A stretch of DNA of 28,855 nt from Parcubacteria group bacterium (GCA_013203565.1 JABMPZ010000093.1:1-28855), one strand, 5' to 3'. Positions 1 to 28,765 are shown, numbered from the stretch's first letter. A program made the numbers and translations. Notes: generated by a model not told the origin, from the letters alone.

Positions 1-1275
1 GGTGTTTATAGTATGGGAGATTATTTAGTTGGAGGTGAAATAGGTCTTTTTGATAATTCAAGAACAATTTTCCCAGAGCATAACTTTTTTCCTGCTGAAA
101 CTCGTATTATATTTGAGAAAAGAGGTTGGAAAACTATTACTGCATTTCAAACAAGGAATATACCACATCAAGGGCATGAGTTTTTACAGAAAAAAGCGCT
201 TGAACAAACAGATGGTTTGTTTATACAGCCCGTAATAGGGGAGAAAAAACTTGCTGACTTCAAAGACGAGTATATTTTAACCTCGTATGAGATTTTAATT
301 GACAAGTATTATCCAAAGCAAAAGGTTCTGCTCGGCATATTGCCATTAAAGATGAGGTATGCTGGTCCGAGAGAGGCAGTTTTTCACGCTTTAATCAGAA
401 AAAACTTTGGTTGCACACATTTTATTGTAGGAAGAGACCATGCTGGAGTCGGTGGTTACTATCCGCCGTTTGCTGCTCAAGAGATTTTTGATACATTCAA
501 AAAAGATGAGATTGGTATTGAAATTTTCAAATATCCTGAAGTTATTTTTTGTAATGAAGAAAAAAAACACTTATTTATTACTGACTGCCCACATAAAGAA
601 GAAAACAAATTGTCTTTTTCCGGGACTAAATTACGAGAGCATATAAAAAACAATGAATTACCTCCTGAATATATTATTAGACCAGAGGTTTTTAATATGA
701 TTTCTCAAAGCCATAACTCATTAGTTGATGATGTGTATAAAAATAATACAAAGAAACAGGGTTTTGTTCTTTGGTTTACTGGATTATCTCAATCAGGGAA
801 AACAACAATAGCTGATGGAGTATTTAAGATATTAGAAAAAAAAGGACTTAAACTTGAGAGGTTAGACGGGGATATTGTAAGAGAATCATTGAGTTCTGAC
901 CTTGGCTTTACACATAAAGACAGGCAAGAGAATATAAAAAGAGTGGCTTTTATGTCAAAGCTTTTAAGTAGAAATGGAGTTGGTGTTATTGCTTCTTTTA
1001 TATCTCCGTATAAAGAAATGAGGGAGAAAGTAAGACAACAAGTTGCCAATTTTATAGAGGTTTATACTAATGCACCTTTGGAAGTTTGTGAGGCAAGAGA
1101 TACAAAAGGACTTTATGCAAAAGCCAGAAAAGGAGAAATACAAAACTTTACTGGCATTTCCGACCCTTATGAAGCTCCAGAAAATCCAGAGATTGAATTA
1201 TTCACTAATAGAGAAACATTAGAAGAAAATATTGATGAAGTAATTAAGTATTTGGAGCAGAATAATCTTGTTTAA
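1..1275 (+). CDS. sat/cysC: Bifunctional ATP sulfurylase (Sat) / adenylyl-sulfate kinase (CysC) fusion, 5'-truncated by window edge
   Basis: Frame is open from base 1 (ggt gtt tat agt atg). Sat motifs FQTRNIPHQGH, RYAGPREAVFHALIRKNFGCTHFIVGRDHAG. APS kinase motifs WFTGLSQSGKTT, LDGDIVR, SFISPY, DTKGLYAKARKGEIQNFTGISDPYEAP. Confidence 0.96.
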   Translation, partial: GVYSMGDYLVGGEIGLFDNSRTIFPEHNFFPAETRIIFEKRGWKTITAFQTRNIPHQGHEFLQKKALEQTDGLFIQPVIGEKKLADFKDEYILTSYEILIDKYYPKQKVLLGILPLKMRYAGPREAVFHALIRKNFGCTHFIVGRDHAGVGGYYPPFAAQEIFDTFKKDEIGIEIFKYPEVIFCNEEKKHLFITDCPHKEENKLSFSGTKLREHIKNNELPPEYIIRPEVFNMISQSHNSLVDDVYKNNTKKQGFVLWFTGLSQSGKTTIADGVFKILEKKGLKLERLDGDIVRESLSSDLGFTHKDRQENIKRVAFMSKLLSRNGVGVIASFISPYKEMREKVRQQVANFIEVYTNAPLEVCEARDTKGLYAKARKGEIQNFTGISDPYEAPENPEIELFTNRETLEENIDEVIKYLEQNNLV

Positions 1276-2401
1276 CTTTTCGTTTGATTGTCTGCAACAT
1301 AAAGAAACATAATAGAATTACTAAAGGTATTATAGGGAGAGTATAGCGCGGATACGGAAACAGCACAGAATGCAAAGCCCAAAAATAGGCAATAAAGAGC
1401 CAAAGTAAAAGGATTTTTTTCTTTTTTATAAACTTTAAAGATAAGAAAGATAAAGCCAGCATAAGCAGAAACACGATTTTATAAATTAAAATCAAATAAA
1501 GCGCTGAAGGGTATTTTTGTGTTAAACGTTTAGCTTGTGTTCCTCCAGCTCCGGGTTTCCAAAAAAGATAGATATTTTGCAAACGAGAGACAATAATTTT
1601 ACCTAAAGTTGCTTCCCCTGGCTTTAATTTTTCTGTTTCTATGCTGAAATAGTCTATTTCTACAAAGGCCTTTTGAGTCACATTATGGAAGCCGGAACGG
1701 ATGGGTAGTAATTTGTTTAGTTCAACGTAATTTCTTATGGTCCAAGGTATAAGAGTTGCAAGAAAGATAAGAATTAAAAAACTAAGCTTAAGGAGTTGAG
1801 TTTTTTTTCTGAATTTTTTGAATAAAATCACAAAACCACCACATAACCAAATAGGCAGAAATAAAGCTGAAGGTCTTGTTAAAGTTGCTATTCCTAATGT
1901 TCCGCCTATGGCAGCGGCATTTAGATATTGGGGATTTTTTTGAAAACGTAAAACAAGATATACTAATAAAATCAGCATAAAGCTGAAAACAATTTCTGTG
2001 AGCAGTAAATTAGAGTAAAGTAAAAAATAAGGCCAAAGCACTACAATTATTGATGCAGATAAAGCTAAAACAAAAGATAGGTTTAAGAAATTTTTGGCAA
2101 TGAAGTAAACAAATAGACTGATTAGCCCTAAAATCAATATTTGGATGATTTTAACATAAGTATAATTGTGTCCGAAAACAACATAAATACCAGACAGAAA
2201 AAACGGATACACAGGCGCTCCGTCAGCAGATGAACCATATTCAGTGAATCCATTGCCTTGAGACAAATTTACTGCTGTGTTATCATATGACAAGGCGTCT
2301 TGCGTTACCCCAAAGTCAGGCACAAATTTTAGCCAAATTCCACCTGCTAAAGAAACAAGAATAAATATTGAAACTAAGGCGATTATATCTTTTTTAAGCA
2401 T
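1244..2401 (-). CDS. GT-C fold membrane glycosyltransferase (PMT_2 / ArnT-like, GT39/GT83-like), paralog 1
   Basis: Many hydrophobic helices. Loop motif DALSYDNTAVNLSQGNG, plus PVYPFFL, WPYFLLYSNLLLTE, LTRP, PWTIRNY, PRYTLP. Start reassigned from 2521 to ATG 2401 because the longer ORF runs antisense through the sulfotransferase and a promoter lies just upstream of 2401. Confidence 0.82.
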   Translation of the reverse strand: MLKKDIIALVSIFILVSLAGGIWLKFVPDFGVTQDALSYDNTAVNLSQGNGFTEYGSSADGAPVYPFFLSGIYVVFGHNYTYVKIIQILILGLISLFVYFIAKNFLNLSFVLALSASIIVVLWPYFLLYSNLLLTEIVFSFMLILLVYLVLRFQKNPQYLNAAAIGGTLGIATLTRPSALFLPIWLCGGFVILFKKFRKKTQLLKLSFLILIFLATLIPWTIRNYVELNKLLPIRSGFHNVTQKAFVEIDYFSIETEKLKPGEATLGKIIVSRLQNIYLFWKPGAGGTQAKRLTQKYPSALYLILIYKIVFLLMLALSFLSLKFIKKKKILLLWLFIAYFWALHSVLFPYPRYTLPIIPLVILLCFFMLQTIKRKVKQDYSAPNT

Positions 2402-2417: not shown

Positions 2418-2447
2418 ATTATAACAAAAAATAATACAAAATGAAAA
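2418..2447 (-). promoter_or_regulatory. Putative sigma70 promoter for GT-C paralog 1 (extended -10)
   Basis: Minus strand reads TG-T-TATAAT (2426->2418), with -35-like TTTTCA (2447->2442) at an 18-bp spacer. The predicted leader is about 10 nt before ATG 2401. Confidence 0.6.
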
Positions 2448-3319
2448 GAAACGTTGATTTTATTGGTATTGGCGCTCCAAGGTCCGGTACCACATGGCTC
2501 TTTACCTGCTTTAAGGAGCATCCGGAAATTTGTATGTCTAATATTAAAGAAACAAATTTCTTTACTGATTTTTTGGTATCAGCAAAAAACAGAAACATTA
2601 AAAAGTATGAGAGATTCTTTAGTCATTGCGCTGACGGCGCAGTGATTGGAGAATTCTCCCCACACTATTTATCTGATGAAAAAGCCCCCTTTCTTATTAA
2701 AAAGAATTTTCCTAATGTGAAATTGATTGCTTGTTTTAGGAACCCTGTTGAACAGCTTTACTCTTACTATCGCTTTACTAAGCAAAGAGGCAGGCATAGT
2801 TTCCAAAGCTTTGAGGAGTTTTTAGAGAAAGAAGATTTTGGAGCAAAGAAAAAAGTTCTTTATTATGTCAACTTGAAAAAATGGCTTCATGTTTTTTCAA
2901 GAGAACAGATTTTAATTTTAATTTATAAAGACATTTCAGAAAATCCCAAGCATGTTCTTAGGCAAACATTTGAATTCTTAAATGTTGATAAAAATTTTAT
3001 TCCTTCAAAAGCCAATGAAAAAGTAAATCCAAGCGGTGAATTTAAGGGGTGGTTTTTATCGCGGCTTGCCTACAAGATAATATATTTTTTACAAGGTAGG
3101 GCACGGGGAGATAAGGTGATTGCATGGTTGTTGAGATCGAGAATAAAAGTATTATTTGATAGAGCCATGCAGTCATCCACAAAACAAAAAAAACAACCAA
3201 GCGCTACTCAAGAGCCAATCAGCCCTTCAATAAGAAAAAAATTGCAAAAAATGTATGAAGAAGACATAAAAGGAATAGAGAGTTTAATCAATAGGGATTT
3301 GAGTTTTTGGAGGCAATAA
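2441..3319 (+). CDS. PAPS-dependent sulfotransferase (Sulfotransfer_1/3; resembles heparan-sulfate-type sulfotransferase domain)
   Basis: 5'-PSB loop IGAPRSGTTWL, HPEI..S..KETNFF, GEFSPHY, 3'-PB-like FRNPVEQLYSYY. Adjacent to sat/cysC. Confidence 0.9.
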   Translation: MKRNVDFIGIGAPRSGTTWLFTCFKEHPEICMSNIKETNFFTDFLVSAKNRNIKKYERFFSHCADGAVIGEFSPHYLSDEKAPFLIKKNFPNVKLIACFRNPVEQLYSYYRFTKQRGRHSFQSFEEFLEKEDFGAKKKVLYYVNLKKWLHVFSREQILILIYKDISENPKHVLRQTFEFLNVDKNFIPSKANEKVNPSGEFKGWFLSRLAYKIIYFLQGRARGDKVIAWLLRSRIKVLFDRAMQSSTKQKKQPSATQEPISPSIRKKLQKMYEEDIKGIESLINRDLSFWRQ

Positions 3320-3368: not shown

Positions 3369-5324
3369 ATGTGCGGTATTTTTGGAATTGCAACAAATAA
3401 AAACTCAGGTTTTTCTTCGGAATTGCTGAAAGATTCAGCAGATAAATTATTTCGTTTTTCAGAGTCCCGAGGTAAAGAGGCATCTGGGGTTGCTTTGTTT
3501 AGACAAGGCAAAATTCAAATATATAAAAGACCTGAACCAGCTTCTCGTTTAATTAAAAGTAAAGAGTATGGAGATTTATTTAGGTCTCCTGCTTCAACGT
3601 TGTCGGATATCAGTGCTTTGATAGGCCACGCCAGATTGGTAACCAATGGGGCGCTGGAAGATAACAGAAATAATCAGCCAGTGGTAAAGCAGGGGATAGC
3701 AGCCGTGCATAACGGCATTATAGTGAATGATAATGAGATTTGGGAAGCATTTAGCCAATTAAAAAGAGAGTATGAAGTGGATACAGAAGTAATGTTAGCT
3801 TTATTAGAAATGTTTCTCAGCAAGGGTAGTTCTGTATCTGATTCTTTTCAGGATGTTTTTAGTATTATCAAGGGCGCTGCTTCAGTGGCATTATTGTTTG
3901 AGAAAAAAAGTAAGATGGTATTAGCCACTAATACCGGCTCTCTTTATGTTTGCTGGAGCCGAAATAAAGATGTATTGTTTTTTGCTTCCGAGCTTTACAT
4001 TTTAAAGAAGTTTTTAAAATGGAGAAAATTAAAATTTTTAGGGCCTTGCAAAATATCACAAGTTAAACCTATGTCCGGCTTGGTAATTGATTTAGAGGAT
4101 TTAGGCGCTAAGCAGTTTTTCATGAAAAAAACCAAGTTTTCAGAAGTGGCGGAAAGAACAGTACAGCCCAAGTCTTCAGAAGTTATCAGGGCTCTTGTGC
4201 CTAAAAGCTTAATTATTGATAACCAGAGCCAGGTGGCTGGATTAAAACGTTGCTCTCGTTGTATTTTGCCTGAAACAATGCCTTTTATTGATTTTGATAA
4301 TCAAGGAGTTTGTAATTATTGCCGTGAATACAAGAAGGTGAAGCTGAAGGGTAAGGAGGCATTGGAAAAAGTTCTTGCTGGTTATAGAGCCAATACAGAA
4401 AAGCTTAATGTCATAGTACCCTTAAGCGGCGGAAGGGATTCTTGCTTTACACTTCATTATGCAAAAAATATTTTAGGGCTATCTCCAATTGCATATACTT
4501 ATGATTGGGGCATGGTAACCGATTTAGCCAGAAGGAATCAAGCCAGGATTTGCGGACAATTAGGCGTGGAGCATATTTTAGTTTCGGCTGACATAAGAAA
4601 GAAACGGGAGAACATCAGGAAAAATGTTTCAGCTTGGCTTAAAAAGCCCAATTTAGGTACAGTGCCACTTTTTATGGCAGGGGATAAGCAGTATTTTTAC
4701 TATGCTAATCAGCTTAGTAAGCAAACAAATATAAAGTTGATACTTTTTGGTTCTAACCCTTATGAAAAAACTGATTTCAAGTATGGCTTTTGTAAAGTAA
4801 AGCAAGGCACGGTATCCGAGAAACAAACAAAGCATGCTGTTATTTCAAACATAAATAAATTCAAGATAGCTTTTTATTATACGAGCCAGTTTTTCCGAAA
4901 CCCAGCTTATTTAAATAGTTCTCTTTTGGATACTTTTACTGGTTATCTTTCTTATTATTTTATTCCACATAATTATCTACTTTTCTACAGATATAGGCGG
5001 TGGGATGAAAAAGAAGTGGTTTCAACACTGTTAGAACAATATAATTGGGAATTATCTGAGGATACTAAAGACACCTGGCGCATAGGGGACGGCACTGCTC
5101 CTTTTTATAATTACATTTATTATACAATTGCTGGTTTTACTGAAAATGATACTTTTAGGTCTAATCAGATAAGAGAAGGGGTGATAACAAGAGATGAGGC
5201 CTTGAAAGCAGTAAAAGAAAGTAATCAGCCAAGATATCCGTCAATCAAATGGTATTGCGATACTATAGGTATTGACTTTGAGGAAACTTTGAAGATAATT
5301 AACTCAGTTCCACGTTTGTATTAA
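3369..5324 (+). CDS. Fusion: class II (Ntn) glutamine amidotransferase + N-acetyl sugar amidotransferase (WbpG/WbuX/PseA-like, PP-loop)
   Basis: N-terminal MCGIFG (Cys nucleophile), SRGKEASG, IGHARLVTNG, NNQPV, HNGIIVN, DTEV. C-terminal CSRCILP...GVCNYC Cys cluster and PP-loop SGGRDS. Confidence 0.8.
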   Translation: MCGIFGIATNKNSGFSSELLKDSADKLFRFSESRGKEASGVALFRQGKIQIYKRPEPASRLIKSKEYGDLFRSPASTLSDISALIGHARLVTNGALEDNRNNQPVVKQGIAAVHNGIIVNDNEIWEAFSQLKREYEVDTEVMLALLEMFLSKGSSVSDSFQDVFSIIKGAASVALLFEKKSKMVLATNTGSLYVCWSRNKDVLFFASELYILKKFLKWRKLKFLGPCKISQVKPMSGLVIDLEDLGAKQFFMKKTKFSEVAERTVQPKSSEVIRALVPKSLIIDNQSQVAGLKRCSRCILPETMPFIDFDNQGVCNYCREYKKVKLKGKEALEKVLAGYRANTEKLNVIVPLSGGRDSCFTLHYAKNILGLSPIAYTYDWGMVTDLARRNQARICGQLGVEHILVSADIRKKRENIRKNVSAWLKKPNLGTVPLFMAGDKQYFYYANQLSKQTNIKLILFGSNPYEKTDFKYGFCKVKQGTVSEKQTKHAVISNINKFKIAFYYTSQFFRNPAYLNSSLLDTFTGYLSYYFIPHNYLLFYRYRRWDEKEVVSTLLEQYNWELSEDTKDTWRIGDGTAPFYNYIYYTIAGFTENDTFRSNQIREGVITRDEALKAVKESNQPRYPSIKWYCDTIGIDFEETLKIINSVPRLY

Positions 5325-5336: not shown

Positions 5337-6308
5337 ATGAAACTTGCTGTTATTATTCCTGCCTATAATGAGCAGGAGACAATTCAATCGGTAATTCAGA
5401 AAATTCCCGTAAAGATTAAAGGGCTTTCTCATCAAGAAGTGATTGTGGTTGATGACGGTTCAACAGACCAAACAGCTCAATTAGCCAGAGAGGCCGTGGC
5501 TTTGGTTGTGTCTCACACTAAAAATCGGGGAGTGGGCGTTGCTTTTACTACTGGTGTTGATGTTGCCCTGCGCCGGGGAGCGGATTTGGTTGTTACCTGC
5601 GATGCCGATAATCAGTTTGACCCGTCTGAAATTCCAAAACTCTTAGAGCCGATTTTAGCTGCACAAGCAGATGTTGTTTTAGGTTCTCGGTTCTCTCCAG
5701 GGTCTGTTCTTTCTGGCATACCAAGAGTTAAACTCTGGGGCAATAAGTTCATGTCTTGGTTTTTGAGCTGGATTTGCAAAGAGAAATTTTCAGATGTTTC
5801 TTGCGGGTTTAGGGCTTATTCCAAGGAGGCGCTTTTATGGACCAATCTTTTTGGGGAATTTACATATACCCACGAGGCGGTCTTGAGCTTAAGCTTTAAA
5901 AACTTGAGGATAAAAGAGGTGCCAATTACAACTCTTTATTTCCCAGAGCGGGTTTCTTCTGTGAGTGGCAACTTGGTTGCTTACGGGTTTAGGTCTTTAA
6001 GGATTATTCTTCAGGCAATTCTTGGCTACCGGCCCTTTAAGTTTTTTGGAACTTTGGGCGGTTTGATTTTCGTAATAGGAGTTTTACTGGATTTGGTGAT
6101 GATGATTATTTTTTGGCAAACCAGCAGTTTTTCTCCGTACAGGTTTATTGGCATTTCTGGGCTGATATTTAATATTGTGGGCATAGCCGCTTTTATTGTT
6201 GGCTTAGCAGCTGGCTTGCTGAATAGGGTTCGTCAGAACCAGGAGAGGATTCTTTATTTTTTAAAAAAGCGGGCTTATTCAGATTCTTCAAATCATTTCT
6301 CCAAATAA
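5337..6308 (+). CDS. GT2 polyprenol-phosphate glycosyltransferase (DPM synthase/GtrB-like) with two C-terminal TM helices
   Basis: IIPAYNE, VVDDGSTDQT, NRGVGVAF, DADNQFDP, VLGSRF, SDVSCGFRAYS, and a hydrophobic C-terminus. Confidence 0.87.
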   Translation: MKLAVIIPAYNEQETIQSVIQKIPVKIKGLSHQEVIVVDDGSTDQTAQLAREAVALVVSHTKNRGVGVAFTTGVDVALRRGADLVVTCDADNQFDPSEIPKLLEPILAAQADVVLGSRFSPGSVLSGIPRVKLWGNKFMSWFLSWICKEKFSDVSCGFRAYSKEALLWTNLFGEFTYTHEAVLSLSFKNLRIKEVPITTLYFPERVSSVSGNLVAYGFRSLRIILQAILGYRPFKFFGTLGGLIFVIGVLLDLVMMIIFWQTSSFSPYRFIGISGLIFNIVGIAAFIVGLAAGLLNRVRQNQERILYFLKKRAYSDSSNHFSK

Positions 6309-7591
6309 TGGATTTCTCTCCACGAAAAATTATCTTGGGAAAGTTTGGCAAAGATGTGGCTTGGTATGTGGCTAGTTTAATCACGCTTGCTGTTTGCGGC
6401 GTTGCTTTGAATATACTGATAGCTTGGGTTTACGGGGCAAGTGTACTCGGAGCCTTTAATCAGGTGTATGCTGTTTACATATTATTATCCCAGCTTGCTG
6501 TTTTTGGTATTCATTTTTCTGTATTAAAGAACATTTCGCAATTCAGAGCAGAGAAAGCGCTATGTAGTAAGATTATTTCTTCAGCTCTTGTTATAACATT
6601 GCTGTTGTCTGTGTTAATTATTCTGGTTAGTTTTGGTTTGAGAGGATGGATAGGTGATATTTTACAGAGCCCAATGGTGGCTTCAGGTTTAAAATATGCT
6701 CTGCCTGGGCTTTTGTTTTTTGCCTTAAACAAGGTTTTATTGGCTGTGCTAAATAGTACAAGACAAATGAAAGCATATGCCGTTGGTTTGGGTTTGCGAT
6801 ATGTTCTAATGCTTTGTTTTTTGATTGGCCTTATCTTATTTAAAGCATCAGGCAATATTCTGCCTCTTTTATTTACTGCAAGCGAATGTATATTATTTTT
6901 TTGGCTTCTGTCTTATGTAGGCAGAATTTATCCCTTTGTTGGTTTTTCAAAATGGTCTGGCTGGTTTAAAAAACATTTCCTTTTTGGTTTACGAGCTTTT
7001 GGCGGTGGAGCATTATCAGAAATCAATACAAGGGTTGATGTTTTAATGCTTGGCTTTTTTACAGGTGACTCAATAGTGGGTATTTACAGCTTGGCTGCTA
7101 TATTAGCTGAAGGCCTGCTCCAGCTTACAGTGGCGTTTAGGGCAAATGTCAATCCAATACTCTCCAAGCTTTATTTTGAAAAAGGAGCAAATGAATTGAA
7201 AAAAATTATCAAACAGGGTATTAAAATGTGTTATCCAGTTATGGCAGGAGTTGGTACCTTGGCTATAATAGCTTATCCGCTTCTTATACGTTTGTTCTTG
7301 GGCGCAGATAATGTTTTTATGTTAAGCTGGCCAGTGTTTTTCATTTTAACACTTGGTATTATGGCAAGCGCGGGGTATATGCCTTTTTCGATGCTCTTAA
7401 ATCAAACAGGATTTCCCGGCTCGCAAACTACGCTCAGAGCCTTAGTTTTATTAACTAATATTATTTTAAACTTAGCTCTTATTCCTATTTTAGGAATGTA
7501 TGGAGCAGCCATAGCCACTAGCTTCTCATTTGTTGTGCTTATGGGTTTTTTGAAATTATTTGTAAATCACCAATTAAAAATTAAAATTTAA
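6308..7591 (+). CDS. wzx: Wzx-type oligosaccharide flippase (Polysacc_synt/MOP family) 1
   Basis: About 12 hydrophobic segments. Motifs LGAFNQVY, RVDVLMLGFF...VGIYSLA, LNLALIPILGMYGAAIATS. TAATG overlap with upstream GT2. Confidence 0.87.
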   Translation: MDFSPRKIILGKFGKDVAWYVASLITLAVCGVALNILIAWVYGASVLGAFNQVYAVYILLSQLAVFGIHFSVLKNISQFRAEKALCSKIISSALVITLLLSVLIILVSFGLRGWIGDILQSPMVASGLKYALPGLLFFALNKVLLAVLNSTRQMKAYAVGLGLRYVLMLCFLIGLILFKASGNILPLLFTASECILFFWLLSYVGRIYPFVGFSKWSGWFKKHFLFGLRAFGGGALSEINTRVDVLMLGFFTGDSIVGIYSLAAILAEGLLQLTVAFRANVNPILSKLYFEKGANELKKIIKQGIKMCYPVMAGVGTLAIIAYPLLIRLFLGADNVFMLSWPVFFILTLGIMASAGYMPFSMLLNQTGFPGSQTTLRALVLLTNIILNLALIPILGMYGAAIATSFSFVVLMGFLKLFVNHQLKIKI

Positions 7592-8183: not shown

Positions 8184-8212
8184 TTTTCAAAGCAAATCAA
8201 AATTCGCATTTT

Positions 8213-11527: not shown

Positions 11528-11559
11528 ACACAATTGCCAAGTATCTAATTAATCTAACC

Positions 11560-17201: not shown

Positions 17202-17210
17202 CATACTAAT

Positions 17211-17882: not shown

Positions 17883-17883
17883 C

Positions 17884-19164: not shown

Positions 19165-19177
19165 AATAAATAAAAAT

Positions 19178-21925: not shown

Positions 21926-22613
21926 AGCCAATTCAAAAATAGTAGCCATTGTGCAAGCGAGAATGGGTTCAACAAGATTGCCCGGCAAAGTTTTGATGGA
22001 TGTTGAGGATAAGCCAGTGGTTTGGTGGGTTTTAGAGCGATTAAAAAAAGCCAAAAGAATTGATGAGATTGTTTTGGCAATTCCAGATACAAAAGAAAAT
22101 GATATTTTGGCTGATTTTGCCAAAAAATATAACTATATATATGTAAGGGGAAGCGAGGAAGATGTTTTATCACGGTATTATAAAACAGCTAAAGACAGAG
22201 GCGCAGATATTATCGTGAGAATAACGGCTGACTGTCCGTTTGTTGACCCTGAAATAGTTGATAAGGTTATTAAAACACATTCAGAAGAGGGGAGTGATTA
22301 TACATCTAATGTGGTTGAAAGAACTTATCCCAAAGGGCTTGATACTGAAGTATTCAATTTTGATGTTTTAGAAAACGCCTACCTTGAGGCAAAACAGAGT
22401 CATCATAGAGAGCATGTATCCGCTTATTTCTTAGAAAATCCAGAAATGTTTCGTTTGGAAAATGTATCAGCGCCTCTTGATTTGCAAAATTCAAATATGC
22501 GGATTACTGTAGACACTCAAGAGGACTTAGATTTTATTCGAAAAATAGCAAAACATTTTTCTCCAAGGAAAGATTTTTCATCTATTGAAATCATAAATTA
22601 TGCCAAACATTAA
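21918..22613 (+). CDS. SpsF/PseF-like acylneuraminate cytidylyltransferase family protein
   Basis: IVQARMGSTRLPGKVL, RGSEEDVLSRY, VRITADCPFVDP, YPKGLDTEVF, REHV, RITVDTQED. Confidence 0.85.
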   Translation: MSKANSKIVAIVQARMGSTRLPGKVLMDVEDKPVVWWVLERLKKAKRIDEIVLAIPDTKENDILADFAKKYNYIYVRGSEEDVLSRYYKTAKDRGADIIVRITADCPFVDPEIVDKVIKTHSEEGSDYTSNVVERTYPKGLDTEVFNFDVLENAYLEAKQSHHREHVSAYFLENPEMFRLENVSAPLDLQNSNMRITVDTQEDLDFIRKIAKHFSPRKDFSSIEIINYAKH

Positions 22614-23055
22614 CTTAAGAAAAGCCGATGCTTCTGACACAAAGTTTTTATGGGAATTAAGGTGTCAGCCCGAGGTTTTTCAATACTTTAGAACACCAGA
22701 ACCCGTAGAATGGGAAAGCCATATTAAATGGATTGATCCTGTTTTGGAAGGAAAAACAAACAAAGAGCTTTTTATTATACAAGCAGAAGAAGAGAGGGTC
22801 GGTCAAGTAAGATTTGATTATGAGGAAAATGAGGCAGAAGTGAGTATTTCTATTATAAAAGAGTTTTGGGGAAAGGGGATTGGTTCTTTGGCTTTGGAAT
22901 TAGCTATAAAACAGGCGCAGAAAAATGAAAAAATAACAACTTTATTGGCTGAAATTCATAAAAACAATTTAGCATCTCAACGATTATTTAAGAAATTTAG
23001 TTTTGAGTTAAAAGAACAAAAAGACCAGTGGCTTAATTACACTCTACAGGTATGA
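22600..23055 (+). CDS. GNAT N-acetyltransferase (PseH-like)
   Basis: LRKAD.SD..FLWELR, HIKW, VGQVRFD, EVSISI, WGKGIG, NLASQRLF. Confidence 0.8.
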   Translation: MPNINLRKADASDTKFLWELRCQPEVFQYFRTPEPVEWESHIKWIDPVLEGKTNKELFIIQAEEERVGQVRFDYEENEAEVSISIIKEFWGKGIGSLALELAIKQAQKNEKITTLLAEIHKNNLASQRLFKKFSFELKEQKDQWLNYTLQV

Positions 23056-24131
23056 GCAATAAAATTATAAAAATAGGTAATAAAGAAGTAGGCGAGGGTA
23101 AACCTGTTTTAGTTGTTGCTGAAATATCTTGTAATCATTTGCAGGATTTTGAAAGAGCCAAGGAACTGGTTAAGACCGCTTGTGAGATTGGCGTGGGAGC
23201 TGTAAAACTTCAGCACTACACTCCTGCAACAATGACCTTAAAATCAGATAAGGATTATTTCAAGATAAAAAACCACCCTCTTTGGAAAGGAAAAACATTG
23301 TATGAACTTTATGAAACTGCATATATGCCATGGGAATGGTATGAGCCACTTAGCGAGTTGGCTGGAAAATATAATGTTCCTGTTTTTTCAACTGTTTATG
23401 ATGATACAGCTGTTGATTTTTTAGAAAAATATAATTGTCCTGCATATAAAATAGGTGGGTTTGAGGGGACAGATTATGAGTTATTGAAAAGGGTTGCTAA
23501 AACAAAAAAGCCAGTTATTTTATCCAGTGGAATGTCCACTAAAGAAGAACTTGAGAAAGCAGTGAATGTTTTAAGGGAAAATGGCTGTAATGATATAGTT
23601 ATTGTTAAGGCAGTTAATGCATATCCAACTGTTGATTTGAGTGAGATGAATTTAAGAACTATTCCTGCTCTTGAAAAAGAGTTTGATGTTATTTCAGGGC
23701 TTTCAGAGCATAGCATAACCCTTAATGTAAGCTTGCTTGCCGTAACTCTTGGAGCCAAAGTAATTGAGCGACATTTTACATTAAAAAGAAGCGATGGGGG
23801 AGCGGATTCTGCCTTTTCTCTGGAAACAGAAGAAATGGCTCAATTAGTAAGGGATATAAAAGATAGAAAAAATGTACAAGAAGATGAAAATATTTTAGGT
23901 AGTGTATTTTATGGAGTTACCAAAGCCGAACAAGAATCAATTATTTTTAAGCGTTCTTTATGGGTAATAAAACCAATTAAAAAGGGAGAAGAGTTTACAA
24001 AAGAAAATATAGGTAGATTTAGACCAAATAATGGTTTAGCAATAAAAGATTTACCAAATGTTTTAGGCAAAAAAGCAAAACAAGATATTGATTTTGCTGT
24101 CCCTTTGAGCTGGGATTTAGTTGAAGAATAA
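23052..24131 (+). CDS. pseI: Pseudaminic acid synthase (NeuB family, C-terminal SAF domain)
   Basis: VAEISCNH, AVKLQHYT, LYELY...PWEW, AYKI, LSSGM, AYP, GLSEH, IERHFTL.RSDGGADSAFSLE, RSLW.....KKGEEFTKEN. Confidence 0.9.
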   Translation: MSNKIIKIGNKEVGEGKPVLVVAEISCNHLQDFERAKELVKTACEIGVGAVKLQHYTPATMTLKSDKDYFKIKNHPLWKGKTLYELYETAYMPWEWYEPLSELAGKYNVPVFSTVYDDTAVDFLEKYNCPAYKIGGFEGTDYELLKRVAKTKKPVILSSGMSTKEELEKAVNVLRENGCNDIVIVKAVNAYPTVDLSEMNLRTIPALEKEFDVISGLSEHSITLNVSLLAVTLGAKVIERHFTLKRSDGGADSAFSLETEEMAQLVRDIKDRKNVQEDENILGSVFYGVTKAEQESIIFKRSLWVIKPIKKGEEFTKENIGRFRPNNGLAIKDLPNVLGKKAKQDIDFAVPLSWDLVEE

Positions 24132-24142
24132 CTATAAACTTT

Positions 24143-24814
24143 ATGAAAGTAAGTATTACTATACCTGCATATAATGCAGAAGAAACAATAAAAAAAGCAG
24201 TTCAGAGTGCTTTAAATCAAGATTTTCCGAAAGATGCTTTTGAAGTAGTTGTTGTTAATGATGGTTCAACAGATAACACATTAAATATCTTACAAGAATT
24301 TGGCGATAAGATAAGAATTATAAATCAAGCAAACCAAGGAGCTGTGAAAGCAGCTAATAAAGGATTTCGCGAAGCACGCAATGACTATATAATTAAACTT
24401 GATGCTGATGATGTTTTTGAATTGAATATAATCAAAGAAATGGCAGATGTATTGGATAAAAATTCAGATATTGATTTTGTGTATTCTGACTACTATGAAG
24501 AAAAACAAGGCGAAACAGAATTTGTATCAACGAGCGATAATCTTTTTAATACTATAGCCATTGGCATAATGTTTCGTAAACAAAAATTAGCCCGACAGGG
24601 CTTTTATAATGAAACAGTAGTTTTTGCAGAATATGATTTGCTTTTACAAACTCTTGATATATGGAATGGCTTTCATATACCCAAGCCCCTTTTTAGATAT
24701 ATGCGAAGAGAAGGGAGCATAACAACCAAAGAAGGGGTAAAAGAATTTATTGATGAGCTTAAAAAAGCACACCCGGATAAAATTAAAGAAATTGATAGTA
24801 TTCGTTGTTATTAA
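24143..24814 (+). CDS. GT2 glycosyltransferase (short, SpsA-like)
   Basis: SITIPAYNAE, VVNDGSTDNT, NQGAVKAANKG, KLDADD, EYDL. Confidence 0.88.
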   Translation: MKVSITIPAYNAEETIKKAVQSALNQDFPKDAFEVVVVNDGSTDNTLNILQEFGDKIRIINQANQGAVKAANKGFREARNDYIIKLDADDVFELNIIKEMADVLDKNSDIDFVYSDYYEEKQGETEFVSTSDNLFNTIAIGIMFRKQKLARQGFYNETVVFAEYDLLLQTLDIWNGFHIPKPLFRYMRREGSITTKEGVKEFIDELKKAHPDKIKEIDSIRCY

Positions 24815-24826: not shown

Positions 24827-26074
24827 TTACATCTTTTTGAAAAGATAGAATTGTAGAGAAAAGGTTATTGCCTCAAGTATTAAAAGCGCAGATATAGCTC
24901 CCCATATTCCAAATTGAGGCACCAAGATAAACAATGATAGTATATAAATGGGAGGTAGAACCAAGTTGCTTATCCATAATGATTTTGTTTTCATTTTAGC
25001 TGATAACGAAGTGCCAGCTAATGATCTTGGCACAGCGAAAAGCGCTAAAGCATAAACTTGGGAGTAAGCTACAAATTGTAGATATTTTGGAAAAAGCAGT
25101 TTAAAAATAAAAGGAGCTAAAATTATATAAAGGACTATTATCGGAGTTATAATAACAAGCATTTGCAACATTCTTTTCGGCACTGTCTTTTTTAACTCTT
25201 CAGAGGTTCGTTGGCTGAATTTAGGCATAGCTAAGCCAGGGATTACCTTAAAAACATCTTTAATTTTTAGAGGTAAAGCCAAGGCAATAAAATAAATAGC
25301 TATGCTGGCTGGTCCTAAAAAATGCCAGAGAATAATTTTGTCTAAATTATTATCCACTTTTCCCATAATACTTAATAAACTTAAGTGTTTGCCATAAGGT
25401 ATGGTTTTTTCATCTTGTTCTTTATTAAAGTTTACTTTTTTCATAGTTAATCCCAAAAAGATAAAATGTAGAACAGTCCATGATGAAAAATAAGCTAAAA
25501 GAATTATGAAAATGTTTTTAGTAAAAATTAGCGTAAGAATTACAATGCAAGTAGCTAAAATATGAGTGATTATCCTATATTTATTTTGAATATCAAACCG
25601 TTTTTTGCCACCCCAAAAAGATTCATAGATTATAAAAGAATTGATTAAAGGTAAAAACAAGCTGATAATTAAAAAAGCAAAACCTAAGGTATTATTTCCT
25701 TGTAAGAGATAATAACCCCCTGTTATTATACTACCCAAAGAGGCAAGTGTTCCCCATTTCAGTTTTGTTTTTAAGATAGGTATAAAAGAACCCTCTTTTC
25801 CTCTGGCTACTGCTTGTAATAGCGCAGTATTCATTCCAGAAAGAGTTGGTATTGCTAAAATGCCAGCCACAGATAAAACATACCTATAAGTACCAAAGGT
25901 TTTTGCAGATAATAAGTTGGCAAAAGCAAAAGTTAAAGCAAGGGCTGCTAATGATGTTATTGTTTGCCCCAAGCCAAGCCAAAAACCACCCTTGGCTAAA
26001 TAAACCATATCTGTTTGCGTGTATTTCTGTGAGCGTTTCAAGACCTTGTAAATTTTCTCTTTGAGGTTTAACAT
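24827..26074 (-). CDS. wzx: Wzx-type oligosaccharide flippase 2
   Basis: About 12 TM segments. Motifs TDMVYLAKGGFWL, FANLLS..TFGTYRYVLS, NLDKIILWHFLG..SIAIY, LVPQFGIWGA. Confidence 0.85.
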   Translation of the reverse strand: MLNLKEKIYKVLKRSQKYTQTDMVYLAKGGFWLGLGQTITSLAALALTFAFANLLSAKTFGTYRYVLSVAGILAIPTLSGMNTALLQAVARGKEGSFIPILKTKLKWGTLASLGSIITGGYYLLQGNNTLGFAFLIISLFLPLINSFIIYESFWGGKKRFDIQNKYRIITHILATCIVILTLIFTKNIFIILLAYFSSWTVLHFIFLGLTMKKVNFNKEQDEKTIPYGKHLSLLSIMGKVDNNLDKIILWHFLGPASIAIYFIALALPLKIKDVFKVIPGLAMPKFSQRTSEELKKTVPKRMLQMLVIITPIIVLYIILAPFIFKLLFPKYLQFVAYSQVYALALFAVPRSLAGTSLSAKMKTKSLWISNLVLPPIYILSLFILVPQFGIWGAISALLILEAITFSLQFYLFKKM

Positions 26075-26080
26075 TAATTT

Positions 26081-26109
26081 ATATTAACTGAAAATATGAT
26101 AAACAGCAA
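26081..26109 (-). promoter_or_regulatory. Possible leaderless promoter for flippase 2
   Basis: Minus strand TTGCTG (26109->26104), 17 bp, TAATAT (26086->26081), then 6 nt to ATG 26074. Confidence 0.35.
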
Positions 26110-26860
26110 CCCAAAAATTTCCATTGTAATGTCAACGCACAATGGAGAAAGATACTTAAAGCAATCAATTGAAAGTATTCTGAATCAATCGTTCAGGGAT
26201 TTTGAGTTTTTAATTATAAATGATGGCTCAACAGATAATACTTCTGAAGTTTTAAGTCGTTATGCTAAACAAGATGATAGAATAAAAATAATAGATAATA
26301 CAGAAAACATTGGTTTAACAAAGTCGTTGAATAAGGCCATTGCTGAAGCAAGAGGGGAGTATATAGCGAGAATGGATGATGATGATATATCTTTCACATC
26401 TCGTCTTGAAAAACAACTAAAATTTATGGAGAATAATCCCGCCGTTGTTTTATGTGGCTCTCTGGCTTTAGTAATAAATGATAAAGGAGAGGAAATCAAT
26501 AAAAAGGGTTTGGTGGTCTCTTATAAAGATATTAAAAAGAAACTTTTATTCAATAATCAATTTATTCATTCTTCTTTGTTTTTTAAGAAAGAAATAGGAC
26601 TGTATAATGAGTCGTTTGAGCGAGCCCAGGACTATGAATTTATTTTGCGCATTGCAAGTAAACATCAAGTTGCTAATTTACCTGAATATTTGGTAAAGTG
26701 GAGATCAAGACCGGATTCATTGTCTTTTTCTGGCACAAAACAGCAGAAGTATGCTATTAGGGCTCGTTGGTGGGCAATTACAAAATATGGTTATCCAAAG
26801 CTAAAAGGTCTTTTACATATATTATTAAGAATAGGATACTTACTATGGCCGAAAAGATAA
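26096..26860 (+). CDS. GT2 glycosyltransferase
   Basis: ISIVMSTHNGE, IINDGSTD, NIGLTKSLN, ARMDDDD, HSS, QDYEF. Confidence 0.9.
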   Translation: MINSNPKISIVMSTHNGERYLKQSIESILNQSFRDFEFLIINDGSTDNTSEVLSRYAKQDDRIKIIDNTENIGLTKSLNKAIAEARGEYIARMDDDDISFTSRLEKQLKFMENNPAVVLCGSLALVINDKGEEINKKGLVVSYKDIKKKLLFNNQFIHSSLFFKKEIGLYNESFERAQDYEFILRIASKHQVANLPEYLVKWRSRPDSLSFSGTKQQKYAIRARWWAITKYGYPKLKGLLHILLRIGYLLWPKR

Positions 26861-27975
26861 AGATATTACAAATAATTACTCTATCTGAATGGGGAGGAGC
26901 TCAAGGAGTAGTTTATGATTTAACAACCAACCTGCCAAAGGATAAGTTTTTAGTTGAGGTTGCTGTATCTCCTGACGGGCTCTTAGTAGAAAGATTAAGA
27001 GAAAAAGGTATTAAAGTTTATGAGATACCATCTTTACAAAGAGAGATTGGGCTTATGAAAGACATAAAAACAATGTTTGTTCTTTTCCGACTCATTAGAA
27101 AGGGTAAATATGACATTGTGCACTGTCACTCAACTAAAGCAGGGCTATTAGGTCGTTTAGCAGCAAAGTTAGCCAGAACTAAAGATATATATTTTACTGC
27201 GCATAGCTGGGGATTTTACAACAAAGAAGAATATGGCAAGAAAGTTGTTCTATTCAAATGGTTTCAGAAAATTGGCTCTATGTTTTCATCTAAAATAGTA
27301 TGTGTTTCAGAAAAAGTAAAACAAGATGGCTTGAAGAATAAAATAGCAAAAGCAAATAAGTTTTTAGTTATTAAAAATGGAATTGATTTTCAATTGAAAG
27401 ACACAAAACAGGGGATAAGAGAGCAAATGGGTATTCCTCAAGATAAAATCATTATTGTAATGACTGCACGACTGGCTCATCCTAAAAATCCATTGATGTT
27501 TTTAGAAGCATCTAAAATAGTGAAGAATACTTTTCCAGAGATTAAGTTTATGTTAATTGGAGATGGGATATTTATGGATGAGTGTAAGGAGTTTGTTCAG
27601 AATAATAACTTGGGGCATACTTCCGCTCTTTTAGGAGAAAAAACACCAGAACAAACAAGAAAACTAATGAAGGCCTGTGATGTTTTTGTTCTGTGTTCAA
27701 AGTTTGAAGGTATGCCAATCACTATTATTGAAGCAATGTTCGCTGGATTACCTATTGTTGCGAGTGATGTGGGTGGAGTAGGGGAGTTAGTGAAAAACAA
27801 TCAAAATGGGTTTCTGTTAAAAACACAAAACCCAGAAGAATTAGCAGAAAGAATAATATATCTAGCAAAGAATAAAAACAAATCAAAACAACTCGGCAAT
27901 AATAGCCGAATCCGTGCCCAAAAAGGTTTTTCAGTACAGAGAATGGTTGAACAATATACAAAGCTTTATGGATAA
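26845..27975 (+). CDS. GT4 (GT-B) glycosyltransferase
   Basis: EWGGAQ, HCHSTKAG, TAHSW, IKNGID, ARLAHPKNP, DVFVLCSKFEGMPITIIEAM..GLPIVASDVGG. Start reassigned to ATG 26845. Confidence 0.92.
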   Translation: MAEKIKILQIITLSEWGGAQGVVYDLTTNLPKDKFLVEVAVSPDGLLVERLREKGIKVYEIPSLQREIGLMKDIKTMFVLFRLIRKGKYDIVHCHSTKAGLLGRLAAKLARTKDIYFTAHSWGFYNKEEYGKKVVLFKWFQKIGSMFSSKIVCVSEKVKQDGLKNKIAKANKFLVIKNGIDFQLKDTKQGIREQMGIPQDKIIIVMTARLAHPKNPLMFLEASKIVKNTFPEIKFMLIGDGIFMDECKEFVQNNNLGHTSALLGEKTPEQTRKLMKACDVFVLCSKFEGMPITIIEAMFAGLPIVASDVGGVGELVKNNQNGFLLKTQNPEELAERIIYLAKNKNKSKQLGNNSRIRAQKGFSVQRMVEQYTKLYG

Positions 27976-28765
27976 ATTATTACAACAAACTATTGATTTA
28001 GCAAAACAAGCAGGTGAAGAAGTAATGAAAATATATAACAGGGGTTTTACTCAAAAAGAAAAGCAAGATAAGTCGCCTGTAACTGAAGCTGACTTAGCTT
28101 CAGAGAAAATAATTCTGCAAGGTCTTAAAAAAACAGGAATTACTGTTTTGTCAGAAGAAACAGAACCAGATAGTAAATGGTTTGAAAAAGATAAAATTTG
28201 GATGGTTGACCCGCTTGACGGCACTAAGGACTTTATACAAAAAACAGGAGAGTTCTCGGTAATGATTGCTTTAGTTGAAAATAAAGAACCGATTTTAGGA
28301 GTTATATATCAGCCAACTACAAATACATTATATTTTGCAGAAAAAGACAAAGGAGCTTTTATTCAAGAGGGAGCAGGAGAGCCAGAAAAAATAAAAGTTT
28401 CTGATGTTAGTGAATTATCAGATGCTCGGATAATTTTAAGTCGTAATCATACAAGCCAAGCGCAAAAAGATTTTGTGAAAAAACATCACTTTGCAAACGC
28501 AAAACATATTGGTAGCGCTGGATTGAAAATAGTTGCTGTATCCAGCCAAAAAGCCGAAGCATATTTTACAGAAAGCGACAAAGCTCATCAATGGGACACA
28601 GCCGCAGGAGAGTGTATATTAAAAGAAGCTGGAGGTATAATTACCGACATAAAAGGAAACCCATTAATCTATTGCAAGCCACAAACCAATCATCAAAACG
28701 GCATCTTAGTTTGCAATTCATCACTACATCCCAAAATTCTTCAAGCCCTAAAAGAGACCTTCTAA
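27968..28765 (+). CDS. cysQ: 3'(2'),5'-bisphosphate nucleotidase (PAP phosphatase)
   Basis: KQDKSPVTEAD, LSEE, WMVDPLDGTKDF, EFSVMIAL, GSAGLK, WDTAAG. Start reassigned to ATG 27968. Confidence 0.93.
   Translation: MDKLLQQTIDLAKQAGEEVMKIYNRGFTQKEKQDKSPVTEADLASEKIILQGLKKTGITVLSEETEPDSKWFEKDKIWMVDPLDGTKDFIQKTGEFSVMIALVENKEPILGVIYQPTTNTLYFAEKDKGAFIQEGAGEPEKIKVSDVSELSDARIILSRNHTSQAQKDFVKKHHFANAKHIGSAGLKIVAVSSQKAEAYFTESDKAHQWDTAAGECILKEAGGIITDIKGNPLIYCKPQTNHQNGILVCNSSLHPKILQALKETF

Follow-up and report, generated by a model that had tools for sequence, protein, structure and literature searches.

In rhizobia (NodPQ with NodH, for the Nod factor) and in Xanthomonas (RaxPQ with RaxST), a private ATP sulfurylase/APS kinase furnishes a linked sulfotransferase with PAPS for modifying a secreted or surface molecule, outside the cysteine pathway. 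These systems differ from the locus described here in having CysDN-type sulfurylases, in their acceptors, a lipochitooligosaccharide or a peptide tyrosine, and in standing outside any Wzx/Wzy glycan locus. The synechan xss cluster is reportedly of the Wzx/Wzy type with sulfotransferases in the cluster, and is said to reside on a cyanobacterial megaplasmid with OPX/PCP export parts and regulators of its own, while the cluster of Cobetia marina KMM 1449 is reportedly related to the sulfated-polysaccharide cluster of Vibrio sp. KMM 8419. In the capsular cluster of the latter, dedicated PAPS-synthesis genes and sulfotransferases are found among glycosyltransferases (GTs) and Wzx, and the presence of PAPS genes and sulfotransferases inside a polysaccharide cluster is a hallmark of sulfated polysaccharide synthesis (PMC11641403). 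The xss genes of Synechocystis sp. PCC 6803, a free-living bacterium, are likewise a genetically defined set for producing a sulfated polysaccharide outside the cell (PMC8205485). The encoding of sulfation within a glycan locus is already known from other bacteria, and we found no paper describing an in-locus design for making, using and recycling PAPS in Patescibacteria (CPR).

The locus analysed here carries the genes expected of a sulfated-polysaccharide cluster: PAPS genes with a sulfotransferase, a phosphoglycosyltransferase, Wzx and Wzy_C. The window, by which we mean the whole stretch of DNA analysed, is an entire 28.9-kb contig of a metagenome-assembled genome (MAG, 73% complete, genome roughly 0.9 Mb) derived from freshwater metagenomes, and taxonomic placement assigned it to a Patescibacteria (CPR) bacterium, the kind of host considered in a preliminary description of the sequence. 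Searches with Pfam and NCBIfam profiles recovered all the genes named in that description at about the same positions: the window encodes Sat/CysC, one sulfotransferase, CysQ, eight GT2/GT4, two Wzx, two GT-C enzymes, PseB/C/I and seven probable methyltransferases, at an even GC content throughout. Extended with contig C95 of the MAG and a metagenome contig of 59.5 kb, the full locus spans ∼34 kb and 32 genes. The view that PAPS genes bracket the locus does not survive this extension, as glycan genes lie beyond both, and the apparent bracketing arises because the contig ends fall there. On the 5′ side of Sat/CysC, the 59.5-kb contig provides 6.5 kb with a GT4 and a restriction-modification system; 3′ of cysQ, a Bac_transf phosphoglycosyltransferase and a Wzy_C-TPR protein are followed by MurB and SecA (59.5-kb contig and C95). 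All three PAPS-cycle genes stand in operons with glycan genes. The preliminary description also raised the idea that modules may have been inserted into an older sulfation locus; compact CysC-CysQ-sulfotransferase or Sat/CysC-sulfotransferase modules are present in other Patescibacteria, but the even GC content of the window shows no trace of such an insertion.

Where the Vibrio cluster has cysDNC, this locus has a Sat/CysC fusion, and cysQ, present here, has 0 occurrences in the text of the Vibrio paper (PMC11641403). The Vibrio cluster also differs in its ABC/Kps export and in belonging to Gram-negative cells that additionally assimilate sulfate, and its glycan structure is chemically proven, whereas the patescibacterial glycan is predicted from genes. 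Compared with Synechocystis, the host here has a genome of only ∼0.9 Mb, and searches of its MAG returned no genes for sulfate assimilation.

The Sat/CysC fusion (ATP sulfurylase and APS kinase; 1-1275, plus strand; PF01747, E 1e-81, and PF01583, E 8e-61) is represented in the window by its C-terminal 424 residues, its 5′ end being cut by the end of the contig, and aligns with 153-569 of the 572 positions of the bifunctional model NF004040; it is because the contig ends that the PUA domain is missing. The complete protein, on the 59.5-kb contig, has 565 residues and a PUA_2 domain. In the full-length 565-aa sequence on L003, PUA_2 (E 2e-51), ATP-sulfurylase (E 9e-82) and APS_kinase (E 1e-60) are all recognized, and it passes TIGR00339 (403 bits against 323) and TIGR00455 (234 against 139) while missing the cut-off of the NF004040 bifunctional equivalog (527.5 bits against 669). 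The HxxH, GRDHAG, P-loop GLSQSGKT and LDGD motifs are present. The closest solved structure is the bifunctional SAT/APS kinase 2gks (E 8e-122, residues 24-562 matched), which likewise combines PUA-like, ATP sulfurylase and APS kinase domains but has a different physiological context, the gene here being translationally coupled to the upstream GT4, with which it overlaps by 4 nt.

The sulfotransferase (2441-3319, plus strand; PF00685, Sulfotransfer_1, E 4e-17, and PF13469, E 4e-14) is predicted to be a soluble, PAPS-dependent enzyme of 292 residues; we found no transmembrane segment in it, and the MAG yielded no second sulfotransferase. It is the first gene of a tightly spaced operon continuing with an amidotransferase, a GT2, a Wzx and methyltransferases. 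Public automatic gene calls set its start at 2534, whereby the PAPS-binding loop is lost; we place it at 2441 because the N-terminus is conserved. In the family alignment (A1), G9-I10-G11, K36, G70, R100, P102 and S108 do not vary, conservation of E71 is at least 90%, and the enzyme here retains all the PAPS-site residues that are invariant in the family. The 5′-PSB loop (GAPRSGTTW, residues 11-19), whose basic position is R or K among 31 family members, aligns through R14 with QKTGTT in NDST1 and KKGGT in 3-OST-3, the 3′-PB motif R100..S108 aligns with that of the same two enzymes, and E71 with the Glu of their EKS/TxxYF motif. This Glu is the catalytic base in heparan-sulfate and tyrosylprotein (TPST) enzymes, whereas cytosolic SULTs use a His. 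Searched with Foldseek, the AF2 model (pLDDT 90.5) has 3rnl as its top match (E 4e-13, TMt 0.82), followed by heparan-sulfate sulfotransferases (E 1e-8 to 1e-10; 3-OSTs at TMt 0.7-0.78), which score better than tyrosylprotein, polyketide and cytosolic sulfotransferases. The likeness to the NDST1 sulfotransferase domain and 3-OST-1/3/5 covers the fold, the 5′-PSB, the 3′-PB and the Glu of E-K-(S/T)-x-x-Y-F; it is otherwise a likeness of fold only and does not point to a glycosaminoglycan acceptor. Identity is 16-20%, and the enzyme here is soluble and bacterial and has Arg for Lys in the 5′-PSB. The suggestion of a mucin- or heparan-like mimic is not borne out, given the freshwater source and the fact that no UDP-glucose dehydrogenase or dedicated glycosaminoglycan synthase family is among the window's Pfam matches.

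CysQ, the 3′(2′),5′-bisphosphate nucleotidase or PAP phosphatase (27968-28765, plus strand; PF00459, E 5e-61), scores 223.9 bits on TIGR01331, 5 below the cut-off of 228.8 and 86 over the next IMPase-family model, HisN. Both metal-binding motifs, DPLDGT and WDTAAG, are there, and in the PDB the protein is closest to the CysQ 3b8b (E 4e-33), the top-scoring inositol monophosphatase reaching 1e-23. Its start is most likely ATG 27968 rather than GTG 27914, and its 5′ end overlaps the preceding GT4 by 8 nt (gene calls on L092). Homologues with 43-50% identity adjoin CysC in other Patescibacteria, but since CysQ is missing altogether in two relatives that have Sat/CysC and a sulfotransferase, it is not obligatory for the system.

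Among the genes that surround this trio, a GT-C membrane glycosyltransferase (PMT_2; 1244-2401, minus strand; PF13231, E 5e-10; about 9 hydrophobic segments) converges with Sat/CysC, its start being placed at ATG 2401 because the longer ORF runs antisense to the conserved N-terminus of the sulfotransferase. Downstream of the sulfotransferase lie, all on the plus strand, 1) a fusion of a class II glutamine amidotransferase with a WbuX-like N-acetyl-sugar amidotransferase (3369-5324; GATase_7, E 3e-14; TIGR03573 WbuX, 142 bits, under the cut-off of 203), which probably forms an acetamidino or amide group and has a 50% identical homologue in another patescibacterial locus rich in sulfotransferases (L024), 2) a polyprenyl-phosphate sugar synthase-like GT2 with two C-terminal transmembrane segments (5337-6308; PF00535, E 7e-27), whose top NCBIfam matches, AglJ and PpgS, do not reach their cut-offs, 3) a first Wzx-like flippase (6308-7591; Polysacc_synt, E 6e-13), 4) a class I methyltransferase (7593-8183; Methyltransf_11, E 2e-13), and 5) an FkbM-type methyltransferase (about 8249-9184; Methyltransf_21, E 2e-15). 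The second GT-C enzyme (PMT_2/PMT; 9171-10352, minus strand; PF13231, E 3e-10, and PF02366, E 3e-7; about 8 hydrophobic segments) precedes a same-strand run of 15 genes. This run is opened by an NAD-dependent sugar epimerase/dehydratase, two GT4 and one GT2 (10574-14518, plus strand; Pfam), ahead of which a promoter-like site at 10534-10562 has 11 of 12 matches, the best of the first 12 kb, the total of such sites being not above that in shuffles. Four probable methyltransferases follow (14555-17882, plus strand): an FkbM-like protein of 282 residues, a class I, an FkbM and another class I enzyme, all recognized by Pfam except the 282-aa protein, which has no Pfam match and whose resemblance to FkbM clusters (ESM Atlas score 0.98) is a lead only. 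Towards the 3′ end are, again assigned with Pfam, a GT2 (24143-24814, plus strand), the second Wzx-like flippase (24827-26074, minus strand; Polysacc_synt), a further GT2 (26096-26860, plus strand) and a GT4 (about 26845-27975, plus strand; also from the L092 gene calls). Just past the window, C95 encodes the initiating phosphoglycosyltransferase (Bac_transf, E 5e-63; TIGR03025, 351 bits against a cut-off of 296) and the Wzy_C protein of the polymerase/ligase type (E 3e-16).

A pseudaminic-acid-type module, found with NCBIfam and Pfam profiles, occupies 19178-24131 on the plus strand and comprises PseB, PseC, a methyltransferase, a CTP_transf_3 cytidylyltransferase, a GNAT and PseI; in another locus (L017), the pse genes stand in identical order adjoining a sulfotransferase. 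PseB (461 bits, cut-off 408), PseC (503, cut-off 423) and PseI (398, cut-off 340) exceed their equivalog cut-offs, while the PseH-like GNAT (61 bits, cut-off 93) and the CTP_transf_3 protein (27 bits against the 206 set for PseF) fall below theirs, and the pseudaminylation put forward in the preliminary description is unproven because no match to PseG (TIGR03590) was found in the window or the 73%-complete MAG. At 17884-19164 (plus strand), 13 nt upstream of pseB, lies a GT-B-fold protein with no Pfam match above threshold and 44 homologues, the named ones all from Patescibacteria or unclassified bacteria. Its model (pLDDT 91) matches UDP-GlcNAc 2-epimerases including NeuC, TagF and GT-B transferases in Foldseek (TM 0.5-0.58), and by this modelled fold it could be a candidate UDP-sugar hydrolase, substituting for PseG, or a nonulosonate transferase.

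Genuine APS kinase is found in just 13 of 300 sampled Patescibacteria, nine of them with a sulfotransferase, often adjacent, and three with a PAPS-reductase-family gene; counted among 301 genomes, 14 are kinase-positive, 10 of these with a sulfotransferase and three with a PAPS_reduct-family gene. Three other sampled genomes combine APS kinase with the sulfotransferase family of this locus, and the genes are adjacent in all three; in G101, G193 and G060, Sat/CysC adjoins the sulfotransferase within GT/Wzx/Wzy_C loci. Because APS kinase is this rare and yet adjacent to the sulfotransferase in 3/3 other genomes, the clustering of PAPS genes with sulfotransferase is more than expected by chance. 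The family itself is often multicopy, and GT2/GT4 homologues lie within 10 kb of it in 47 of 59 loci (each at least 8 kb); for comparison, the one genome used as a control, the MAG itself, has two such GT sites in 646 kb outside the locus.

That the acceptor is a carbohydrate is inferred from the operon, the family neighbourhoods and the structural ranking. Because the 5′-PSB has Arg instead of Lys, a non-glycan acceptor is conceivable: the PAPS system would then be real, with the sulfotransferase acting on a lipid, a small molecule or, like RaxST and TPST, on protein tyrosine, and its position in a glycan locus reflecting shared regulation or an envelope function. Tyrosylprotein sulfotransferases have Arg in their 5′-PSB, as does the PRSGTTW of this enzyme; TPST and polyketide sulfotransferase folds are significant matches as well, and no substrate is known for 3rnl, the structure that matches best. 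Yet heparan-sulfate sulfotransferases match 3 to 5 orders of magnitude better than TPSTs, the gene leads an operon of amidotransferase, GT2 and Wzx, and the family is surrounded by GT genes in most of its loci, so that we consider such an acceptor unlikely.

Less probable still is a role of Sat/CysC and CysQ in sulfate reduction or assimilation, with the reductive genes either supplied by a host or located in the 27% of the genome that is unassembled. This is how sat/cysC of CPR bacteria are usually read, sat, cysC and cysN being listed as sulfate-reduction genes (PMC7906910, PMC10221324, PMC12239599), and the PAPS_reduct-family genes in three of the kinase-positive Patescibacteria agree with it. 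Against it, no ORF of at least 80 aa in the window matches PAPS_reduct or NIR_SIR, as the preliminary description had noted, and PF01507 (PAPS_reduct), PF01077 (NIR_SIR) and PF00291 (PALP, cysteine synthase) have no match in the MAG, even though these searches matched in 11-14 of 14 reference genomes used as positive controls; as the MAG is just 73% complete, the lack of cysH, cysIJ and cysK is provisional. The same three profiles are unmatched in G101, which belongs to the same order, is 100% complete and has Sat/CysC beside a sulfotransferase. No assimilatory pathway lies in the 6.5 kb on the 5′ side, and Sat/CysC and CysQ are translationally coupled to GT genes in a locus with an intact sulfotransferase. 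Nor do we give much credence to the sulfation genes being decaying remnants, or non-functional in this strain with the glycan unsulfated. Assemblies of several samples break within Sat/CysC and right after cysQ, and a sulfotransferase of one sampled relative (G283) has internal stops, but on the 59.5-kb contig the three reading frames are uninterrupted and complete, 99.9-100% identical to the window, and their catalytic motifs are intact, including the 5′-PSB, Glu and 3′-PB of the sulfotransferase; judged by sequence, Sat/CysC, the sulfotransferase and CysQ look active.

The proposal that PAPS is used here for glycan sulfation is supported: no reductive genes were found in the MAG, the sulfotransferase motifs are intact and the nearest folds after 3rnl are those of glycan sulfotransferases. 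Since the genes to make, use and recycle PAPS sit inside a surface-sugar locus, PAPS most likely feeds sulfotransfer to a surface glycan rather than nutrient sulfate use. What speaks against this reading is that no SulP or PiT match, as expected for a sulfate importer, was found. Sat/CysC would convert sulfate and ATP to APS and then PAPS in the cytoplasm, and the single soluble sulfotransferase would transfer the sulfo group onto a hydroxyl or an amine of a sugar within a polyprenyl-diphosphate-linked oligosaccharide (less likely of a nucleotide sugar), begun by the Bac_transf phosphoglycosyltransferase and lengthened by the GT2/GT4 enzymes, while CysQ would hydrolyse the inhibitory by-product PAP to AMP. 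The same glycan would probably also be decorated with a nonulosonate of the pseudaminic-acid type, with several O-methyl groups and with an amide or acetamidino group; a Wzx protein would flip it outward and the Wzy_C-TPR protein would polymerise or ligate it. On the outer face, the GT-C enzymes may draw on polyprenyl-phosphate donors to add extra sugars. Taken as a whole, the gene content makes it probable that this is the main, single large surface-glycan assembly locus of a freshwater patescibacterium, equipped with a sulfation system of its own.

The PAPS supplied by this locus probably serves the sulfation of a glycan rather than sulfur assimilation, as the preliminary description had proposed, since its genome yields no assimilatory match, the distribution of the genes across the phylum points the same way, the neighbourhoods of the sulfotransferase are rich in glycosyltransferase (GT) genes, and both Sat/CysC and CysQ are translationally coupled to such genes. 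The window is the entire contig C87 of a metagenome-assembled genome (MAG) of 684,602 bases in 115 contigs (35% GC, completeness 73%, contamination 0.55%), in which we found no match to the PAPS_reduct, NIR_SIR or PALP (cysteine synthase) families, with positive controls in 11–14 of 14 reference genomes. Because the MAG is incomplete, we sampled 300 other Patescibacteria genomes, taking as genuine those APS kinases that matched at E < 1e-18. Such a kinase occurs in 13 of the 300 and the sulfotransferase family of the window in 6; in all three genomes that hold both (G101, from the same order, G193 and G060) the two genes adjoin, within loci that carry GT2/GT4, Wzx or Wzy_C genes. Sulfotransfer_3 or Sulfotransfer_2 genes are found in a further six genomes with the kinase, in most cases on the same contig, and a CysQ-like gene lies 1–2 kb from the kinase in 4 of the 13, while a strong PAPS_reduct-family match was obtained in only 3. 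Of 80 loci from species genomes with the sulfotransferase family, Sat, CysC or CysQ lies within 10 kb in 11, and the sulfotransferase is present in several copies in 16. GT2/GT4 homologues accompany 47 of the 59 sulfotransferase loci of at least 8 kb, compared with 2 GT2/GT4 sites in the 646 kb of the MAG outside the locus, a rough control taken from one genome.

CPR sat/cysC genes have been listed as sulfate-reduction genes (PMC7906910, PMC10221324, PMC12239599); in the 300-genome sample they occur mostly with sulfotransferases and CysQ, not with reductases, which corrects this common reading. One genome (G100, contig C62, 636–3778) encodes CysQ, an APS kinase and a PAPS_reduct-family protein consecutively, the last of which may be CysH, CysD or a relative that does not reduce PAPS. 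Three others (G066, G213 and G283, two of them 97–98% complete) hold the sulfotransferase family with no APS kinase found, and would either take PAPS from a host or use another donor; the copy in G283 contains internal stop codons.

Scanning every ORF of the window against Pfam and NCBIfam recovered the same genes as the preliminary description, whose gene observation is thereby confirmed; its interpretation is partly supported, holding as regards glycan sulfation and a CPR host but finding no support as regards mimicry. The Sat/CysC fusion (1–1275, forward strand) is followed by a GT-C/PMT_2 protein (1244–2401, reverse), the sulfotransferase (2441–3319, forward), a GATase II-WbuX amidotransferase (3369–5324), a GT2 with two C-terminal transmembrane (TM) segments (5337–6308), a first Wzx-like flippase (6308–7591), two methyltransferases (7593–9184) and a second GT-C protein (9171–10352, reverse). 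A forward run of 15 genes (10574–24814) then encodes an epimerase, two GT4, a GT2, four methyltransferases and a GT-B protein, and continues into a Pse-type part with PseB, PseC, a methyltransferase, a CTP_transf_3 cytidylyltransferase, a GNAT protein, PseI and a GT2. A second Wzx (24827–26074, reverse) is separated by a GT2 and a GT4 from CysQ (27968–28765). Neither a PAPS reductase nor a sulfite reductase was matched among the window ORFs. An open-ended ORF of 88 aa (28591–28854) was dismissed as spurious, as it overlaps cysQ, matches no family and is uncalled on a longer contig. Promoter and terminator scans gave site counts equal to those of shuffled sequences, so that no operon boundaries can be claimed from them.

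The same DNA is found at 99.9–100% identity on L003, a JGI metagenome contig of 59.5 kb that extends into both flanks. There, the full-length Sat/CysC gene is preceded by a GT4 whose stop overlaps its start by 4 nt, and no assimilatory gene lies to its left; further left is a restriction-modification cluster (L003 1727–4796; two N6_N4 methyltransferases, a BsaWI-like endonuclease and a DUF6680 protein). This cluster is not in the MAG, and a search of the MAG for the left flank of the locus returned nothing save one short, unrelated match of 82 bp. To the right of cysQ come a Bac_transf polyprenyl-phosphate glycosylphosphotransferase (TIGR03025, 351 bits against a cut-off of 296) and a membrane protein of 683 aa combining Wzy_C and TPR domains, and then MurB and SecA; the MAG also contains this flank, as contig C95, whose overlap with the end of C87 is 26 nt long. 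The full locus thus spans about 34 kb and 32 genes, with the PAPS genes one gene in from its left end and two genes in from its right end. As further glycan genes flank both ends, the PAPS genes do not bracket the locus, contrary to what had been proposed. Assemblies from several samples (L005, L091, L093, L094 and contig C95 of the MAG) break at nearly the same two points, one inside Sat/CysC and the other no more than about 90 nt past cysQ, pointing to variation between strains or to branching of the assembly graph at the two edges of the 28.9-kb block.

The Sat/CysC copy in the window is truncated by the contig end and covers positions 153–569 of the 572 in the bifunctional model; its missing N-terminus (PUA_2) was not found elsewhere in the MAG. 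Its Sat domain carries the HxxH and GRDHAG motifs and its kinase domain the P-loop and LDGD motifs. The full-length protein on L003 has 565 aa with PUA_2, ATP sulfurylase and APS kinase domains and scores above the cut-offs of the sulfate adenylyltransferase and APS kinase models; among solved structures it is closest to 2gks, a bifunctional SAT/APS kinase. CysQ falls 5 bits below the TIGR01331 cut-off, yet lies 86 bits above any other IMPase-family model, retains the DPLDGT and WDTAAG motifs, and has a CysQ as its best match among solved structures. A search of the MAG for sulfate importers of the SulP and PiT families gave no match.

For the sulfotransferase, the only one found in the MAG, we collected 311 homologues; the Sulfotransfer_2 search of the MAG gave no match, nor did the control for that family match anywhere. 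In an alignment of 31 homologues, the PAPS-site residues G9-I10-G11, R100, P102 and S108 are invariant and E71 is kept in at least 90%; set against NDST1 and 3-OST-3, these positions fall on the 5'-PSB, the Glu of the E-K-S/T-x-x-Y-F motif and the 3'-PB. The predicted structure (pLDDT 90.5) best matches 3rnl, an uncharacterised bacterial sulfotransferase, followed by heparan-sulfate glycan sulfotransferases ahead of tyrosylprotein, polyketide and cytosolic enzymes; the likeness to the heparan-sulfate enzymes is one of fold, at 16–20% identity. As it has no hydrophobic segment, the enzyme should work in the cytoplasm, the site of PAPS synthesis. The public automatic gene call (P0003, 261 aa) starts at 2534, so that the 5'-PSB loop is lost from the predicted protein, and that of the divergent GT-C gene starts at 2521; the N-terminus, which is conserved across the sulfotransferase family, places the true starts at 2441 and 2401, respectively. 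Members of the same family at 33–40% identity (L020, L030, L031, L033, L036, L046, L058 and L064) are common among archaea, both DPANN (Pace-, Woese- and Nanoarchaeota) and Asgard (Promethearchaeota), and are also found in Bacteroidota, Desulfobacterota and Gammaproteobacteria.

NodPQ/NodH and RaxPQ/RaxST are classic private PAPS supplies. In work on Vibrio sp. KMM 8419, the presence of PAPS-synthesis genes and sulfotransferases inside a polysaccharide cluster is described as the hallmark of sulfated polysaccharide synthesis (PMC11641403); the synechan cluster of Synechocystis is a genetically defined example (PMC8205485). The locus is not a new kind of system; what sets it apart from known clusters is its occurrence in CPR, a Sat/CysC fusion accompanied by CysQ, the combination of Pse-type genes and seven probable methyltransferases with sulfation genes, and a host in whose 73%-complete MAG no assimilatory genes were found. 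Our literature searches returned no paper dealing with sulfotransferases of CPR bacteria or with sulfated glycans made by them, and nothing relevant on CPR and pseudaminic or nonulosonic acid. In other Patescibacteria the sulfation genes lie closer together: L012 has a GT4 54% identical to that of the left flank and, further along, CysC-CysQ-sulfotransferase, L047 has Sat/CysC, CysQ and a sulfotransferase inside about 6 kb, L024 has CysC-CysQ next to a sulfotransferase, and in G101 it is Sat/CysC that adjoins the sulfotransferase. By analogy, these arrangements are compatible with the PAPS genes of the window having once been adjacent; GC content, inspected for a trace of inserted modules, is even across the window (0.29–0.41), with no sharp step.

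PseB, PseC and PseI score above their equivalog cut-offs and the GNAT protein and cytidylyltransferase below those of PseH and PseF, while no PseG was found in the MAG. A protein of 426 aa encoded 13 nt upstream of pseB (17884–19164) matches no Pfam family; its own family numbers 44 proteins, and the few that carry a name are labelled Patescibacteria, Pacebacteria or just "bacterium". The model of this protein has a confident GT-B fold resembling UDP-GlcNAc 2-epimerases (among them the hydrolysing NeuC), TagF and further transferases of the GT-B fold, which makes the protein a candidate for either the missing UDP-sugar hydrolase or the nonulosonate transferase. In L017, from a member of Magasanikbacteria, a sulfotransferase is the immediate neighbour of a PseB-PseC-PseF-PseI-GT2-Wzx series whose gene order matches that of the window, so the linkage of a sulfotransferase to Pse genes is not unique to this genome. 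The locus encodes seven probable methyltransferases if we count a protein of 282 aa (14555–15403), which matches no Pfam or NCBIfam family and whose ESM Atlas likeness to FkbM methyltransferase clusters (score 0.98) is a lead only; these and the amidotransferase agree, in gene content only, with the earlier proposal of a glycan bearing methyl and amide groups.

The host is a CPR bacterium, with sigma-70 factors and no TFIIB found in its genome. As no 16S rRNA was found in the MAG, we placed it by RpoD, whose closest named relatives (70–79% identity) are from Candidatus Pacebacteria, Patescibacteria group, Gribaldobacteria and Nealsonbacteria. Heparan or mucin mimicry, suggested in the preliminary description, was rejected: no UDP-glucose dehydrogenase or dedicated glycosaminoglycan synthase family was matched by Pfam in the window, the sulfotransferase resembles heparan-sulfate enzymes in fold only, and the window DNA comes from freshwater metagenomes.

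Instead of forming a capsule, the proposed sulfated, nonulosonate-bearing and heavily methylated oligosaccharide might be passed en bloc to proteins of the cell surface (type IV pilins or S-layer proteins), with the Wzy_C-TPR protein acting as an O-oligosaccharyltransferase of the PglL/PilO type, a reading we consider rather unlikely. That protein (positions 5559–7610 of L095, just right of the window) joins a Wzy_C domain, with about 13 TM segments, to a TPR domain at its C-terminus, and the TPR part, by analogy with O-oligosaccharyltransferases, might bind protein acceptors; the matches of the protein in a PDB sequence search cover the TPR repeats only and do not separate polymerase, ligase and O-oligosaccharyltransferase. 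If transfer to protein were true, the product would be the anionic glycoprotein coat of a CPR epibiont, setting host attachment or the avoidance of phages and predators, with the corollary that the "sulfate reduction" sat/cysC genes of CPR and DPANN would for the most part serve surface sulfation. Concrete enzymes for expression are the sulfotransferase, begun at the corrected start codon, and the Sat/CysC fusion.

CPR bacteria live attached to other microbes, and to our knowledge almost nothing is known of the chemistry of their surfaces. That a single locus takes up about 3.6% of an estimated 0.93-Mb genome, holds 8 of the 10 detectable GT2/GT4 homologues of the MAG and keeps an ATP-costly PAPS system, with no sulfate-nutrient genes found, speaks for an important role of a sulfated, anionic surface glycan in the lifestyle of this organism.
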